DNA of 64,000 nt from a bacterium. Lineage in GTDB: Bacteria > Verrucomicrobiota > Kiritimatiellia > CAIKKV01 > CAITUY01. The notes under the pieces are model-generated. The model did no database searches. It was not told the origin of the DNA and saw only the letters and a program-made list of their open reading frames with translations. Below are positions 38,926-45,143 of the stretch, piece after piece (position 1 is the stretch's first letter; each line of letters begins with the position of its first letter). A program made the position numbers and the translations under genes. The stretch lies in assembly GCA_037141135.1 (NCBI GenBank), contig JBAXDB010000001.1, positions 9,191 through 73,190 of the forward strand, written 5' to 3'.

Positions 38926-40188
38926 ATGAACGCGATCATTCTATCGATTGGTGATGAGCTAATTCTCGGGCAGACCTTGGACTCCAATTCCGCCTGGTTA
39001 AGTTCCCGTTTGGCTGATCGCGGTATTATCCCCTTATATCATAAAACGATAGCTGACAATCTGGACGCCACTGTTAGTGCCCTGCGACTAGCCTGTGAAG
39101 AGACGGATTTGGTGATTGTTACAGGTGGGTTGGGGCCGACGATGGATGATCTTACCCGGCAGGCGTTTGCTGCCATGATCAATAAACCCCTGGATTTGCA
39201 TCCTCCATCACTGGAGCGGATGCGTGCCTTTTTTAAGCAGCTTGGGCGCGATATGCCGGCATCAAATCGAATCCAAGCCCATGTTCCACGAGGCGCGGAA
39301 GTCCTTGATAATGACTGGGGAACGGCGCCGGGTATCAAACTTAAAGTTGGGAAAACGTTGCTTTTTGCATTACCCGGTGTGCCCATCGAGATGGAAAAGA
39401 TGGCTGAGCGTTATATTTTCCCTCTTTTCGAGCGGAGTTCCGGCAGCGTCGTAGTGGTGGAGTCGCTCTCCACCTTCGGTGCAGGGGAATCTGTGGTTGC
39501 CGAGAAATTGGGTGAAATCATGCGGCGTGATCGCAATCCGCTGGTGGGGACAACCGTTTCCGGCGGGGTGGTGACGATCCGGCTGCGGAGTGAGGCGCCT
39601 ACATCCGATTTGGCGCAGAAACAACTTACCCGGACGGTTGCGCTGGTGAAGGAGCGGCTGGGGGTACTTGTTTTTGCTGAAGGGAAGCAGACGTTAGCAG
39701 AAGTTGTGGGGCAATTGGCGAAGGCAAAATCCAAGCGTCTGGTCACCGCTGAAAGCTGTACCGGCGGGTTGGTGGGCAAGATGCTGTCTGACGTTCCGGG
39801 AGCCAGTGCCTGGTTTGATGGCGGGTGGGTGACGTATTCAGATGCCATGAAGGTCCAGGCACTGTCAGTTCCAGCCACGTTAATTGAGCAGGGAGGGGCC
39901 GTGAGTGAATCGGTTGCCTGCGCGATGGCGGAGGGGGCTCTGAAGAAATCAACGGCTGATTTATCGGCGGCGCTGACAGGTGTTGCCGGTCCGGATGGTG
40001 GGACTGAGGAGAAGCCTGTAGGAATGGTCTGGATCGCCATTGGGTGCAGGCATGGGGCACGGATTGAGACCAAGGCCGAGTGCTTTCGATTTCCTGGCGG
40101 TCGTGAGATGATACGTGACCGGGCCGCCAAAACCGCTCTCAATTTGCTGCGCCTTGAACTGCTGAAAGTCGTTGGTTACCGGTTGTAA
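38926..40188 (+). CDS. cinA: competence/damage-inducible protein CinA (MoCF-like domain plus PncC nicotinamide-nucleotide amidohydrolase domain)
   Basis: MNAIILSIGDELILGQTLDSNSAWL is the CinA N-terminus, and the C-terminal CinA/PncC domain is TAESCTGGL. Confidence 0.85.
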   Translation: MNAIILSIGDELILGQTLDSNSAWLSSRLADRGIIPLYHKTIADNLDATVSALRLACEETDLVIVTGGLGPTMDDLTRQAFAAMINKPLDLHPPSLERMRAFFKQLGRDMPASNRIQAHVPRGAEVLDNDWGTAPGIKLKVGKTLLFALPGVPIEMEKMAERYIFPLFERSSGSVVVVESLSTFGAGESVVAEKLGEIMRRDRNPLVGTTVSGGVVTIRLRSEAPTSDLAQKQLTRTVALVKERLGVLVFAEGKQTLAEVVGQLAKAKSKRLVTAESCTGGLVGKMLSDVPGASAWFDGGWVTYSDAMKVQALSVPATLIEQGGAVSESVACAMAEGALKKSTADLSAALTGVAGPDGGTEEKPVGMVWIAIGCRHGARIETKAECFRFPGGREMIRDRAAKTALNLLRLELLKVVGYRL

Positions 40189-41698
40189 CACTGTTGCTGC
40201 GCAGAGGACCAACGGCAGGGGTTGGTTTGCGGTGTTCCCGTTTCGGGATGCCGTAAAGCATGGCGATCCGGCGATTGGCTTCCGGGAGCATGGCTTTATC
40301 CATCACAAGATCCAGTCCCAGGCTTTTTAGCCGAATGCGGGTGATTCCTTCATCTTGATCCCGGATGGCAAAGACGTCCTTCATACTTGTCACCGGCTTG
40401 TTGTTGAGTTGGGTGACCAACTCATCGCGAATTTCCTGATATCCGACATTGATTGGATCTGGAAGGACGCCGGTGAGGATGATGACCCGCTCGCCTGGTT
40501 TGGTGGGGGCCTGCGCACGTGTCAGGTAAAGATCGACCAGGCGCGGGTTGGATCGAACCATCCACTGCGCTCCGTAGGCGAGTAGATAATCGGCAGAAAG
40601 CTCCCGGAAGATAAAGCCGCCTTCCACGAGATATTCGGCCTGTTCACCCTCAATATTCAGTGGAACCAGGGATTTTGAGTCGCTATAGGCGTCCAGCTTG
40701 AGTTGCACCTCTTCACTTTTCTTGTTTCGCCAGCGTGTGATGGTGATGATATCGCCGGGGTGCCGGCGGCCGGATATTTGATGGATCAGAACCAGTCGCC
40801 CGAAGTCTGGATCGGTATAATACCCCTGCGAATCAACGGCGTATCCATCCCATTTCAATATGACATCTCCTGACTGCAGAACAGCAGCAGCACCGCTCCC
40901 GGGAATGGTTCTCAAGACCAGTACACCTTGGCGGTCATCGGTGAGTCCATAAAACTTCCGGGCGGCCGGAGCGACCAGGGGAGCCCAGGTCATCCCGGCA
41001 ATCGCAATGCCGCGATAGGGTGGGGCGCTGACATCATCGACGAACCGTTTCAGGATGGCGGTCGGCAGCACTAGACTGGTCTGGGTGGCGTCGTCATATT
41101 CCATGATCAGACCGGCCAACTTTCCCTCGTGGTAGGCAGGTGACCCCACACGCTCCAGTTTGAGGTCGGTCAGGGCTTGAAAGGTTAAAATGCTGAGGGG
41201 CGCATTGGGAAGTTGCGCGATCTGAATCGCGGTAATTCGGCCTTCCCCGCTTTGCTGCTGGCCCGCCGCGTCGAATTGAACGAGTTGGATTTTGGCGCCC
41301 GTCCTGAGGGGGGCACCCCACTGGACCGGGACATAGCCAGTGGTTGGGGCCGCCAACAGGGCGGCATTGATCCGGGGATCGGCTTCAATCACCCGGGCCG
41401 TGGTTTTGCTGGCACCGCCAGGAGGCTGTATCTCTATCAGTGTGGCATTTCTGACGAGATCCTCGGTGGTGATCAACTGGCCGTCCGTGATAACGATTCC
41501 ATAGCCGGTACGTGATTCCGGACGGGCTTTTTTCCATGGAAAATGGGAGTCAAATTTCTGGACGGTGACCAGGACTTCGACCACGCTGGCGGGAAGGCTG
41601 TTGGTTTCGGCCCGGGTCGCCGGAGTGATCAACACCGCCAGACCCAGCGCTAAAACCGTTTGTCTTATAAATTGAGAGATGTGCGAGGTGAGTTTCAT
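40139..41698 (-). CDS. S1C protease-like pseudoenzyme with PDZ domain; a paralog of the upstream DEG/Nma111-like protease that has lost the His/Asp/Ser triad
   Basis: It is clearly homologous to the protein at 41698..43221 (SVVEVLVTVQKFDSHFPW versus SVVKIFVTVQQEDFRQPW). TNAHVV is replaced by TTEDLV, DIAVL by INAALL, and GNSGGP is absent. It has a signal peptide. The start overlaps the upstream stop (TAATG). Confidence 0.7.
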   Translation of the reverse strand: MKLTSHISQFIRQTVLALGLAVLITPATRAETNSLPASVVEVLVTVQKFDSHFPWKKARPESRTGYGIVITDGQLITTEDLVRNATLIEIQPPGGASKTTARVIEADPRINAALLAAPTTGYVPVQWGAPLRTGAKIQLVQFDAAGQQQSGEGRITAIQIAQLPNAPLSILTFQALTDLKLERVGSPAYHEGKLAGLIMEYDDATQTSLVLPTAILKRFVDDVSAPPYRGIAIAGMTWAPLVAPAARKFYGLTDDRQGVLVLRTIPGSGAAAVLQSGDVILKWDGYAVDSQGYYTDPDFGRLVLIHQISGRRHPGDIITITRWRNKKSEEVQLKLDAYSDSKSLVPLNIEGEQAEYLVEGGFIFRELSADYLLAYGAQWMVRSNPRLVDLYLTRAQAPTKPGERVIILTGVLPDPINVGYQEIRDELVTQLNNKPVTSMKDVFAIRDQDEGITRIRLKSLGLDLVMDKAMLPEANRRIAMLYGIPKREHRKPTPAVGPLRSNSVTTGNQRLSAVQGAAN

Positions 41699-43221
41699 TA
41701 CTTGGACTCCTGCGACTGGACATGACTGAAGGCGGGAATGCTGTATTGCGGCAGAATCTGGGCATCAGCGTCCACGGTTTGGGTGGCATCCATGATCAGG
41801 GGATCATCCCGTCCTTCAAACCGGAACACGTGGAAGCCCTGCGATGTTTTTTTCAAGGCCTCTGGAATATCGCTGATGTTACGGATGGGCTGACCATTGA
41901 TCGAGGCTAGAATCTGGTTGAAGTGACTGGCGCAATAAGTGTTGATGGGATGAGGAAGGCGGCCGGTGAGCAGGACGAACTGGGTGCGGTCCTTAATCAG
42001 GTTATCCAGTTTGGCATAGCGAGCGGTGTAGAGCAGGTGTTGGGCTGCCGGGGTATTGAGTTCGGCGCCAAGGGTGGCCAGATAACCGCGACTGAGCGGG
42101 GAAAATATCAGACCGCCGACAATATAGTATTCCGACTTTTCGTCGTAGGTTTGACGAAAGATGAAGAGATCCGGCTTGCGCTTGAGTGGAACCACGATGG
42201 CGAGCGTATTATCCTCGCGCCAGATGGTGAAGTTTATGGTCTCGGTGCACTGTTTGCGCTCGATGAATTCACTATATTCAACGCTATTGCCATCCAGCCG
42301 GACCGAGCCGTCGTTGGCAATGGAGTGGCCGTCAATGGAAAGCAGGACGTCGCGTGGCTTGAGCAGGCCTGCGGCGGCGCCATAGGGATCCACATTGGCA
42401 ACTACCACGCCGCTTGCGCTGGCGGGAAGCTTGAGATTGGCGCGCAGTGCCGGGTTTTCCGTGCGCAGATAATCAACTCCCATTTCCGGATAACCATCAT
42501 AAACGCCGTCTTCAATATCTTTTAGAAAGTGCTCAATCACGGGAAGGGGGATGGTGTAGCCGATGTTTTGAGCGCCGACAATTCCCTGGAAGGCAATGCC
42601 AATCACCTTATTATTGAAGAGGACCGGCCCGCCGCTGTTACCGGGATTAATGGCGGCATCCACCTGCATTACAAGATGTGAATCGATGGAACTGTGGGTA
42701 TAGAGGTTGTAGTCAATCCGGGAAACGACGCCCTTGGTGAGGGAAAGTCGACCGCCTCCCATTGGATAGCCGAGCACAATCACGGCGTCATTTAAACTGG
42801 GGAGGGTGGAGCCGAATGTCAGGGGTTTGGTCCCCTCAAAAAACGATTCATCTTTAACTTCCAGCACGGCGATGTCGCAGTCGTGGGCGATAAAGCGAAC
42901 CTTGGCCGGGAATTTCCTGGTATCGCCTTCTCGCTGCACCTCGATAAAGCGTGCATCGGAGACAACGTGGGCGTTGGTCAGCAGGCGTTTCCCTTTAATG
43001 ATAAAGCCTGAGCCGCTGCCGCTCATAGGCGGGCTGGACTGCCATGGTTGACGAAAATCCTCCTGTTGCACAGTAACGAATATTTTGACAACAGATTGGC
43101 GCTGCTGGTCAATCCCTGCGATGCTTGCAAAGGGGAGGCCCATGGCGACGGCCAGTAGAAGACCCCGGAGGTTATTATAACGAAGATGTTTTGATAATTG
43201 CATGGGTGCGACAATATCCAA
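41698..43221 (-). CDS. trypsin-like S1C serine protease with PDZ domain, DEG2/DEG9/Nma111-like
   Basis: TNAHVV (His), DCDIAVL (Asp) and GNSGGPVL (Ser) are present. KVIGIAFQG...NIGYTIP..IEHFL is characteristic of plant DEG2-type and yeast Nma111-type proteases. It has a signal peptide. Confidence 0.75.
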   Translation of the reverse strand: MDIVAPMQLSKHLRYNNLRGLLLAVAMGLPFASIAGIDQQRQSVVKIFVTVQQEDFRQPWQSSPPMSGSGSGFIIKGKRLLTNAHVVSDARFIEVQREGDTRKFPAKVRFIAHDCDIAVLEVKDESFFEGTKPLTFGSTLPSLNDAVIVLGYPMGGGRLSLTKGVVSRIDYNLYTHSSIDSHLVMQVDAAINPGNSGGPVLFNNKVIGIAFQGIVGAQNIGYTIPLPVIEHFLKDIEDGVYDGYPEMGVDYLRTENPALRANLKLPASASGVVVANVDPYGAAAGLLKPRDVLLSIDGHSIANDGSVRLDGNSVEYSEFIERKQCTETINFTIWREDNTLAIVVPLKRKPDLFIFRQTYDEKSEYYIVGGLIFSPLSRGYLATLGAELNTPAAQHLLYTARYAKLDNLIKDRTQFVLLTGRLPHPINTYCASHFNQILASINGQPIRNISDIPEALKKTSQGFHVFRFEGRDDPLIMDATQTVDADAQILPQYSIPAFSHVQSQESK

Positions 43222-43394: not shown

Positions 43395-45143
43395 TCAGAA
43401 AAAGGCAGCCGTAAGGATAGCCTCGGCTGCGTTTGTCCAGGTCTTTGAGATTGCCCGGCCTTTCGGCAGTTGAATCATCAGCCGCCGGGAGGCTATTTTG
43501 TTTGCAAGCGAGACCGAGGCATACCGGTCAATCAGATGCGGTGGGGCGTGGTGAATGATGGCAATCAGGTTATCCAACAAATCCAAAGGTTCTTCGGTTT
43601 GCGGAACCAGTACAAATTGAAAAAGGTTGTCCGGTAATGTCCGCATGGCCTGCTGGATGAATTTCGTGAGGGGTGCCCGCTGTGTGAACAGGTCAGGTCC
43701 TTTGAAAAGAAAAGCCCGGCGGGTTTGAGTGCCTGAAAGTTTTTCCTTCCCGTGGTCCGTTACTGTGATTTGTTCGGGAAAAAGGTCGAGCTTCCTTCCG
43801 ATGAATTGCGGAGTGGGCACATCCGAGCGGAGTTTGGGGTGCCGGGCGACAAAAGTTTCAATAGCCTGAAAGGCCGGGTGATCCATGCTGGACGTTTTTG
43901 TCACTGCATAAGGGGGGAGGGGCAGCGATTGGATACCCCACTCATGTTGCCGGTCTCTCAATTCGGTGCCTGGCAGGAGCAGGGTTTGCAGGCATTGGAT
44001 GTTGGTGCTTCTCAATTTGAGTGCCCATCTCAATGACTCCTTGACCTCTTCGACTCGCTGAAGCGGGAGCCCATACATGATGTCCACGGTAACTTTGATG
44101 CCGCGTCGGGTCAAGAGGTTGATCCCCGCATCCAACCGGGACAGGGTGGTCGGGCGGCGGATAGCCTTGAGAACGGTGGCATCCCGGCTTTGCACACCGA
44201 CTTCAATCTCCACAAAATGGGCGGCAACCATCAGGCCGGCCTCTTCCGTGGTCAAACGACTGGCATTGAGTTCGGCAAAAAAGGAGAGGGCGCCGTCCTT
44301 ATTGAAGGCGGCAAGTCGGGTCAGAATCTCATGGAATCTGGGATGGGCATTAAAGGTGGGATCCACAAAGCGGATTTCGCGGGCTCCGATTTTTTTCAAG
44401 GCGTCAATTCGTGCCATGATGGCGTCGGGGTTAAGAAACGACATGGAACGGCGCAGGTGCGGGTAGCGGCAGTAAGTGCAGCGCATGGGACAGCCCCGCG
44501 AGGTTTCCAGGTAGGCCATGCCCTTGGCGTCAGGCCGGCAGGCGGCATGGCCGGGTGGTGGGATTTGGTGCGACAGTTCGACGGGACGGGGGATGGTATG
44601 CCCCCAGCGGTAGCCTTTGGGTGTCCGGAGCGCGACAGAGGAATAATTCACCGGTTTTCGGGTTCGGAAGGACCGGAGCAAGGCGGGAAAAACCACCTCT
44701 CCTTCGCCAACCGTGATGGCGTCGGCAATGGTTTTTTTGAACAGGAATGGATGCGAATAGGCCGCCTCGGGCCCGCCCAAAAGGATGCGGGTATGAGGGC
44801 GGTGCTTTTTCAAGGCCTGCATCAAACGCAGGGTTCTTTCAATGTTCCAGAGATACATGGTGCAGGCGATGAGGTCGGGCTTTCTGATGAGAATCTCCGC
44901 AAGCATGGTCGGATTGTCATGTGAGCAAGCAGTGGCGGGAAGCTGGAGAAATTCATAGTAAGCATCTTCCCCCGCCCGTTCGGCCGCGTATTGTAGATAG
45001 GTGGCAGCAAGTGGGATGTTTTCAGTATCCCCATGAATATCATTATCCAATTGGGGTAGCTGGAGAAATAAGATTTTCTTGCGTTGTGCCATAGCCGTGC
45101 TTTTAGCATTGGCCATTGAGAATGGCAAGGAGGGGTAGGACAT
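43395..45143 (-). CDS. B12-binding domain radical SAM protein (class B radical SAM) with ~200 aa C-terminal extension
   Basis: An N-terminal B12-binding-like domain is followed by CPMRCTYCRY (CxxxCxxC). The start is uncertain: 45143, or the internal Met at 45116 or 45092. Confidence 0.7.
   Translation of the reverse strand: MSYPSLPFSMANAKSTAMAQRKKILFLQLPQLDNDIHGDTENIPLAATYLQYAAERAGEDAYYEFLQLPATACSHDNPTMLAEILIRKPDLIACTMYLWNIERTLRLMQALKKHRPHTRILLGGPEAAYSHPFLFKKTIADAITVGEGEVVFPALLRSFRTRKPVNYSSVALRTPKGYRWGHTIPRPVELSHQIPPPGHAACRPDAKGMAYLETSRGCPMRCTYCRYPHLRRSMSFLNPDAIMARIDALKKIGAREIRFVDPTFNAHPRFHEILTRLAAFNKDGALSFFAELNASRLTTEEAGLMVAAHFVEIEVGVQSRDATVLKAIRRPTTLSRLDAGINLLTRRGIKVTVDIMYGLPLQRVEEVKESLRWALKLRSTNIQCLQTLLLPGTELRDRQHEWGIQSLPLPPYAVTKTSSMDHPAFQAIETFVARHPKLRSDVPTPQFIGRKLDLFPEQITVTDHGKEKLSGTQTRRAFLFKGPDLFTQRAPLTKFIQQAMRTLPDNLFQFVLVPQTEEPLDLLDNLIAIIHHAPPHLIDRYASVSLANKIASRRLMIQLPKGRAISKTWTNAAEAILTAAFF

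Follow-up and report, generated by a model that had tools for sequence, protein, structure and literature searches.

A conserved gene pair of a Deg2-type HtrA protease and a triad-less paralog in Kiritimatiellia and other bacteria, a candidate heteromeric protease/pseudoprotease complex

The plant HtrA proteases Deg2 and Deg9 (clade II; structures 4FLN, 5IL9, and 5ILB) form homo-oligomers (a hexamer and an octamer) of active subunits in eukaryotic organelles or in the nucleus. In a stretch of 64,000 nucleotides of DNA from a bacterium of the Kiritimatiellia (contig JBAXDB010000001.1 of assembly GCA_037141135.1, positions 9,191 to 73,190; referred to here as the window), two adjacent genes on the minus strand, g1 and g2, encode proteins of the same type. 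As in the plant enzymes, g1 possesses the catalytic triad, a PDZ1 and an unusual PDZ2 domain, a Trp in the LA loop, a Tyr in strand β21, and a GG turn, and g2 is predicted to have the same fold (template modeling score, TM, of 0.9) and has the same lock residues. In contrast to the plant systems, the presumably exported bacterial g1 is paired with a dedicated paralog that has lost its catalytic residues (called dead in the following), and residues at the cage interface have diverged asymmetrically. We infer that a heteromeric protease/pseudoprotease complex is the best reading of this pair.

Other described systems share some of these features. DEG7/Nma111 (Ynm3) from plants and fungi comprises one active and one degenerate HtrA unit with PDZ domains on each, and the degenerate domain of DEG7 mediates trimerization and is needed for oligomerization (PMC3194040). 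However, DEG7/Nma111 is a fused chain of the nucleus or chloroplast and not two polypeptides of the periplasm, and homology at the subfamily level is absent as judged from AtDEG7. Deg5 and Deg8 are two HtrA paralogs that form one hetero-hexameric complex in the thylakoid lumen, a precedent for the stacking of trimer on trimer (PMC3640471, PMC3194040), but both keep the triad, Deg5 has no PDZ domain, the proteins are of the DegP/Deg1 type, and their genes are not coupled. In magnetotactic bacteria, the degenerate pseudoprotease MamO promotes the activity of the HtrA protease MamE (PMC4794232). MamO has a fused TauE-like transporter domain and a di-His metal site and is confined to magnetosome islands. 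In g2, by contrast, no His is conserved in the dead protease domain, Pfam shows no extra domain, and both PDZ domains are kept, and its family is phylogenetically widespread. An analogy with ClpP/ClpR-type rings has been drawn for DEG7 (PMC3194040). In such rings dead paralogs are obligatory structural subunits of a self-compartmentalizing protease, although fold, heptameric-ring symmetry, and the ATP-dependent partner are different. No publication on a bacterial active/dead pair of the Deg2 type, on a heteromeric bacterial HtrA, or on HtrA from Kiritimatiellia was found in a literature search whose coverage left out most papers in subscription journals, and the pair seems to be undescribed so far. 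To our knowledge, homo-oligomers are the working form of the bacterial HtrA proteins studied until now (DegP, DegQ, DegS, and relatives), with communication between identical subunits as the explanation for how they are regulated.

Sequence and predicted structure of the two proteins

The protein g1 (residue numbers are those of a 507-residue frame) carries the motifs TNAHVV with His85, DCDIAVL with Asp116, and GNSGGP with Ser196 as well as the block IGIAFQ...NIGYTIP, and Pfam assigns to it the domains Trypsin_2, PDZ, and PDZ_3 (the last at 1e-24). When compared to the solved structures of Deg2 and Deg9 from Arabidopsis (including 4fln and 5il9), g1 matched over its full length with E-values of about 1e-80, and it is 38% identical to AtDEG2 and 35-38% identical to Deg2/Deg9 over the full length. 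By these criteria g1 is predicted to be a catalytically competent HtrA protease of the Deg2/Deg9 type (plant clade II).

In BLASTP the downstream protein g2 matches g1 along the entire length (25% identity over 501 columns, E-value 1e-36), and it also aligns with Deg9/Deg2 at E-values of 1e-39 to 1e-31. At the triad sites it displays TTEDLV in place of TNAHVV, INAALL in place of DIAVL, and ERVGSP in place of the absent GNSGGP, such that His is replaced by Asp80, Asp by Asn111, and Ser by Val184. The intact triad and block of the upstream gene, the homology of the downstream gene along its whole length, and its altered motifs had all been claimed in an initial annotation made from the sequence alone, and all were read as claimed. 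No column of the protease domain in the dead family reaches at least 40% His or Ser, save for one Ser near the N-terminus. A shifted or alternative triad in g2 was thus ruled out, as the protease domain has no conserved His or Ser.

Among Pfam domains only PDZ_3 scored above the curated threshold in g2; PDZ_2 and PDZ matched weakly and below threshold, extra domains were not detected, and there was no match to a trypsin domain. With 88 family members as input, AlphaFold2 yielded a model of g2 with a predicted local distance difference test (pLDDT) score of 92.7, and when this model was compared by Foldseek to the protomers of 5ilb, 5il9, and 4fln, it gave TM scores of 0.89-0.90 with a root-mean-square deviation of 2.4 Å over about 465 residues. 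Going by this model, g2 would be a complete Deg2-fold protein without an active site. It belongs to the family by its structure but does not qualify as a peptidase. Its PDZ1 domain bears a hairpin, D289-R301, with a motif specific to the dead family, WDG..IDSQGYYxDPDFGR. The C-terminal tail lies outside of the region aligned with orthologs, most of which have 485-505 residues.

In the crystal structure of Deg2, Trp134 of the LA loop stacks on Tyr440 of β21, a strand that acts as internal ligand of PDZ2, beside an (A/G)G turn; the Trp134/Tyr440 lock makes the protomer rigid, and two trimers close into a sealed hexamer via defined interfaces (PMC3481350). The residues W60, Y365, and G369-G370 of g1 correspond to W134, Y440, and A444-G445 of Deg2, and Y493 is present too. 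The lock residues of g2 are W55, Y356, G360-G361, and Y482, and the equivalent of Tyr561 from Deg2 is kept. These residues are near-invariant in both the active-partner and the dead families, and within dead sequences W55 was found in 61/61, Y356 in 53/61, and G360-G361 in 56-61/61. The pattern Y-x-G-x3-[LMA]-G-φ, which precedes strand β13 of PDZ1, is also kept in g1 and g2. With these features, g2 may have kept the capacity to assemble into trimer-based cages and for peptide binding.

At positions equivalent to the trimer-trimer interface of Deg2, different residues are conserved in different groups of proteins. The residues L466, T470, and Y474 in helix αH of Deg2 are represented by Gln, Tyr, and Lys in the active proteins encoded next to a dead gene (partner actives) and are variable in dead proteins as well as in solo and plant enzymes. 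The position of V490 is occupied by Arg in partner actives and by Val in the two other groups. At V542, partner actives have Pro or are variable, dead proteins have Asp or Glu, and solo and plant enzymes are variable, and at K168 both partner actives and dead proteins mostly have Glu whereas solo and plant enzymes are mixed. Such asymmetric conservation is suggestive, as it is what would be expected of a hetero-interface.

Both proteins have signal-peptide-like N-termini, and hydrophobic N-termini like that of g1 occur in all partner orthologs and equivalents of that of g2 in all dead orthologs. The initial claim that both proteins are secreted can be upheld insofar as each carries such an N-terminus as judged by eye, and export of both to the periplasm is probable. 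Stop codon of g1 and start codon of g2 share one base (41698) in the sequence TAATG, and a GGAG motif is located 8 nt upstream; the junction reads GGAGTCCAAGTAATG. This overlap, also part of the initial annotation, was confirmed at 41700-41696.

Conservation and history of the gene pair

Loci resembling that of the window were collected with one genome per species. The 27 loci found are in metagenome-assembled genomes labeled as Kiritimatiellia, Lentisphaerae, Victivallales, Verrucomicrobiota, or PVC (Planctomycetes, Verrucomicrobia, Chlamydiae), and in 27/27 the dead gene directly follows an intact-triad gene of the Deg2 type that has the same orientation. The stop codon of the active gene overlaps the start codon of the dead gene (ATGA/GTGA or TAATG/TGATG) at about 23 of 28 loci, and most overlapping loci have a GGAG-like motif within the last bases of the active gene. 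Orthologs of g2 form at least 120 clusters at 41-100% identity to g2, as compared to 25% identity between g2 and g1, and the triad is present in essentially none of these clusters.

Orthologs of the dead family reach down to about 27% identity and occur in several phyla. When a profile of the dead family was searched against 1.84 billion cluster representatives (clusters at 50% identity), 1302 matches were obtained at E ≤1e-30. Within the best 150 of these 1302 matches, the triad is missing in about 140 of the approximately 145 representatives that cover the protease domain, and these belong to several subfamilies; g1 scored 226 bits on the same profile, below all of the best 150 matches. Six distant dead representatives were inspected in their contigs, namely one from a cluster containing Spirochaetia, one from a contig labeled Myxococcota, PDESU_03827 from Pontiella desulfatans, and three from contigs without taxon label (L028, L031, and L037), and in 6/6 an active gene with Trypsin and PDZ_3 domains is located directly upstream. 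Four more split pairs were found besides the 27 and the six. Over a total of 38 split pairs from several phyla (38/38), the active gene is immediately upstream of the dead one, and wherever upstream DNA was present, every dead gene was preceded by an active one. Two bacterial actives grouping with plant Deg2/9 are not accompanied by a dead gene, which indicates that solo enzymes of the Deg2 type exist in bacteria too. Public annotations name the dead proteins 'hypothetical', 'PDZ domain-containing', or 'S1-C subfamily serine protease', of which the last is misleading. One representative of the dead family (P0095, 659 residues) shows N-terminal Pfam matches to TrkA_C/CitMHS ahead of the dead unit and is probably a merged gene call.

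A neighbor-joining tree was calculated from 111 sequences over 481 columns, and the triad-less sequences (61/61) form one clade in it that is nested within the actives of the Deg2 type. Actives of the partner type form a distinct clade, and those without dead neighbor group elsewhere, with plant Deg2/9. Because there is one nested dead clade and the gene order is invariant, the simplest history would be that one tandem duplication took place long ago and that the downstream copy then lost its catalytic function. Some members of the dead family retain one or two residues of the triad (P0107 has His/Asn/Glu, P0121 has His/Asp/Glu), and the Asp is kept in 10/61 dead sequences of the tree, which suggests that the triad was lost stepwise and differently in each lineage.

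The ratio of non-synonymous to synonymous substitution rates (dN/dS) for g2 against close orthologs is about 0.09-0.12 and similar to that for g1, with dS saturated (>1.4) so that the ratios can be read only qualitatively, and g2 is under purifying selection. Non-synonymous change in the protease domain of g2 is about twice that in the protease domain of g1, whereas PDZ2 changes less in g2 than in g1. The constraint in g2 has moved away from the protease domain and toward the PDZ domains. Throughout the broad dead family, the invariant or near-invariant residues are the Pro-Trp of the LA loop, a small number of structural barrel residues, and numerous positions of PDZ1 and PDZ2.

By searching with g1 and g2 joined in silico, a natural active-linker-dead fusion of 1020 residues (P0351) was detected, encoded in one uninterrupted open reading frame (ORF) without ambiguous bases. 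It begins with a signal peptide and an active unit whose triad is intact. A Pro-, Glu-, and Ser-rich linker of about 60 residues then leads to the dead unit, which lacks a signal peptide, and the other reading frames of the linker contain no hidden stop followed by a signal peptide. The C-terminal half scores 360 bits on the dead profile vs. about 129 bits on the active profile. The nearest relatives of P0351 (on contigs L039, L040, L041, and L043; about 50% identity) are ordinary overlapping split pairs. From its sequence, P0351 appears to be a fusion of the Rosetta-stone type.

Assembly of the pair and alternative explanations

The strict synteny, the coupled translation, the clade of partner actives, the cage architecture, the asymmetric interface positions, and the fusion are the reasons for proposing that g1 and g2 build a hetero-oligomeric HtrA cage in the periplasm, with g2 as a subunit that has no catalytic role and serves as scaffold, for substrate binding, or for gating. 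We consider this model probable. The two proteins would be made in roughly equal amounts and would co-assemble, most simply as two stacked trimers, one of g1 and one of g2, although mixed trimers are conceivable as well. Within such a hetero-cage only g1 would cut, and g2 would supply a scaffold, capture of substrates by its PDZ domains or gating, and possibly allosteric control of g1. A likely task would be to process envelope and secreted proteins or to control their quality. The more far-reaching idea, that several phyla (PVC, Spirochaetota, Myxococcota, and others) hold an ancient and obligatorily heteromeric HtrA cage whose dead subunit sets substrate selection, gating, or activation, is put forward more tentatively, as a plausible extension.

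Several points weigh against a hetero-cage and the history proposed for it. Gene adjacency and coupling would also fit with two separate homo-oligomers in one pathway. The signal peptides of g1 and g2 were judged by eye, the fusion P0351 is known from a single metagenomic contig, and monophyly of the dead clade was recovered in only 53/100 neighbor-joining bootstrap replicates, with long-branch attraction being possible. The combination of Arg in the active and Asp in the dead protein is confined to one PVC clade, missing in non-PVC pairs, and confounded by phylogeny. The co-occurrence of both residues is real but belongs to one clade and counts as a single event, and as a signal of coevolution it is regarded as suggestive only.

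The main rival to the hetero-cage is that g2 forms a stand-alone, non-proteolytic, homo-oligomeric holdase cage for unfolded envelope proteins and is only co-expressed with g1, comparable to the chaperone mode of DegP S210A or of Deg2. For Deg2 a chaperone-like activity has been described (PMC3481350), and a g2 that keeps the full cage-building architecture and the PDZ1 loop, with the PDZ domains as its best-conserved portion, would be suited for such a function. However, the strict order of active and then dead gene at every locus examined, the prevalent overlap of stop and start codons, a distinct clade of partner-type actives, and a natural covalent fusion all suggest more than loose co-expression, and the active enzyme could itself supply chaperone activity. 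We regard a separate holdase as rather unlikely.

More improbable still is that g2 was repurposed as a ligand binder with a new, non-peptide function and modulates the protease only incidentally. Bacterial HtrA-like pseudoproteases with new functions do exist, such as the metal-binding MamO (PMC4794232), and the close dead family has motifs of its own, e.g., TTE[DS]LVRN and IDSQGYYxDPDFGR. However, TTEDLVRN is limited to the PVC subfamily, the broad dead family keeps almost only structural residues in the protease domain without any conserved cluster of His, Cys, or Ser, and the positions conserved throughout the family sit in PDZ1, PDZ2, and the LA lock.

The initial annotation had described the two genes as a split Nma111/DEG-type protease. 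Taken as homology, this would mean that g1 is the active N-terminal half and g2 the degenerate C-terminal half of an Nma111/DEG7 ortholog, either split or not yet fused, and indeed the order of active and dead units is the same, each unit has a protease fold with two PDZ domains, and the published model for DEG7 consists of duplication, fusion, and degeneration (PMC3194040). Sequences of DEG7, DEG2, and DEG9 from Arabidopsis were taken from Additional file 1 of PMC3473262, and the DEG7/Nma111 group (HtrA clade III) was represented by one sequence, its plant member AtDEG7, with fungal Nma111 not included. A hidden Markov model (HMM) of the active partners scored 390 bits on AtDEG2 vs. 26 bits on the N-terminal and 0.4 bits on the C-terminal half of DEG7, and an HMM of the dead family scored 238 bits on AtDEG9 vs. 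8 and 6 bits on the respective halves. In BLASTP searches with g1 and g2, DEG2 and DEG9 gave strong matches over the full length whereas the halves of DEG7 gave only short PDZ fragments with E >0.01, and in the neighbor-joining tree both halves of DEG7 branch outside of the group that holds g1, g2, and plant Deg2/9/10. Unlike the single-chain DEG7/Nma111, g1 and g2 are separate ORFs, each with its own start and signal-peptide-like N-terminus, and among their relatives only the distant P0351 is fused. HMM scores and tree rule out, for AtDEG7, that the pair is a split or ancestral DEG7/Nma111, the homology implied by the initial description was abandoned, and we consider common descent with that protein as very improbable indeed. 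Both g1 and g2 are of the Deg2/Deg9 type, and the dead copy would have arisen by duplication inside the Deg2-type lineage. Because both genes are of this type and the halves of DEG7 fall outside, the active-plus-dead likeness to Nma111/DEG7 is best seen as a convergent architecture which would have arisen independently. Finally, that g2 is a decaying duplicate or an assembly artifact without function, for which nothing but the loss of catalytic residues speaks, can practically be dismissed in view of its intact ORF of 519 residues, a dN/dS of about 0.1, orthologs down to about 27% identity, and 38 independent split pairs, and an assembly duplication in particular is ruled out by the mere 25% identity of the two genes and the presence of the pair at these independent loci.

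Locus surroundings and significance of the pair

The coordinates of the pair, its domains, and nearby genes are compiled in Table 1. A mechanical prediction places the ORF of g1 at 41698..43221 (507 residues) with a TTG start at 43221, but we favor the ATG listed in Table 1, with which gene callers on identical public contigs and the N-termini of orthologs agree. Within the 64-kb window there are no further HtrA paralogs. As the final gene of the unit, g2 overlaps with the 3'-end of a convergent cinA-like gene by 50 nt (40139-40188), which leaves no space for a terminator between them. Consensus scans for a sigma-70 promoter and an intrinsic terminator gave nothing above shuffled background, and for this reason operon boundaries and the inferred co-transcription of g1 and g2 were taken from gene layout only. 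An ORF of 200 residues antisense to g1 is seemingly conserved in 19 related loci and is a shadow of the conserved coding frame of g1, not a gene.

Table 1. Coordinates of the gene pair, its domains and catalytic or substituted positions, and neighboring genes; positions refer to the window unless a contig is named.
Feature	Position	Strand	Remarks
g1, active Deg2/Deg9-type HtrA (S1C) protease	41698..43203	minus	501 aa from ATG 43203; Trypsin_2 + PDZ + PDZ_3
g1 signal-peptide-like N-terminus MQLSKHLRYNNLRGLLLAVAMGLPFASIAG	43132..43203	minus	judged by eye from sequence
g1 His85 codon CAC	42967..42969	minus	invariant in 30/30 partner actives
g1 Asp116 codon GAC	42874..42876	minus	invariant in 30/30 partner actives
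g1 Ser196 codon AGC, within GNSGGP	42634..42636	minus	invariant in 30/30 partner actives
Coupling junction	41696..41710	minus	GGAG 41710-41707, g1 TAA 41700-41698, g2 ATG 41698-41696
g2, triad-less full-length Deg2/Deg9-type paralog (pseudoprotease)	40139..41698	minus	519 aa
g2 signal-peptide-like N-terminus MKLTSHISQFIRQTVLALGLAVLITPATRA, then E	41609..41698	minus	by eye; model helix 7-23, low pLDDT
g2 degenerate protease-fold domain, residues ~35-225	41024..41596	minus	triad positions lost
g2 Asp80 (His position)	41459-41461	minus	
g2 Asn111 (Asp position)	41366-41368	minus	
g2 Val184 (Ser position)	41147-41149	minus	
g2 PDZ1, residues ~226-340	40679..41023	minus	Y-x-G-x3-A-G-φ loop kept
g2 PDZ2 (Pfam PDZ_3), residues 345-487	40238..40666	minus	internal-ligand strand Tyr356, G360-G361 turn
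g2 C-terminal tail KREHRKPTPAVGPLRSNSVTTGNQRLSAVQGAAN, residues ~487-519	40142-40240	minus	~30 residues; low model confidence
cinA-like gene	38926..40188	plus	convergent to g2
ORF antisense to g1	41923-42525	plus	200 aa
B12-binding radical-SAM gene	43395-45143	minus	
Radical-SAM genes at other loci	L032 2602-3489; L029 5787-6584; L036 1892-3292		
Active-linker-dead fusion P0351	L038 537-3599		1020 aa
Flanking genes of pair, Lentisphaerae/Victivallales type	L012 3651-4176 and 7852-9142		also in L014-16, L018-21, L025, L027

No further operon partner is common to all loci. The B12-binding radical S-adenosylmethionine (radical-SAM) gene of the window is located about 190 nt upstream of g1, and radical-SAM genes also adjoin Deg2-type protease genes in Pontiella and on contigs L029 and L036. 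These are four unrelated contexts with genes from different families, and only the gene on L036 resembles that of the window (23% identity). Radical-SAM proteins were dismissed as conserved partners, as the genes are not orthologous and their vicinity is probably a coincidence. In loci of the Lentisphaerae/Victivallales type, a conserved secreted protein of about 170 residues with an aromatic, β-signal-like end (...GVRLGFEF), possibly a small outer-membrane barrel, is encoded upstream of the pair, and a membrane-anchored coiled-coil protein of about 370-430 residues is encoded downstream. Pfam gave no match for either of the two genes, and homologs of them are absent from the window. In this lineage, their products could serve the protease pair as clients or as anchors.

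The anatomy of the pair and its conservation are solid and would moderately surprise specialists for HtrA proteins. If the proposed assembly is true, it would be the first HtrA of bacteria known to be heteromeric, and prokaryotes would have invented the active-plus-degenerate design of Nma111/DEG7 on their own. This design would then have arisen two times or more, in the present case with split and fused forms together and both states visible within one lineage. A widespread, co-translated active/dead pair would add a regulatory design to the family in which a non-catalytic subunit is built in, as is the case for ClpP/ClpR or DEG7. Pontiella desulfatans F1T is available as a pure culture (PMC7356697), and this cultured host makes the idea of a heteromer testable. 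The pair would also be a clean natural system for asking what a protease-fold subunit that does not cut contributes.

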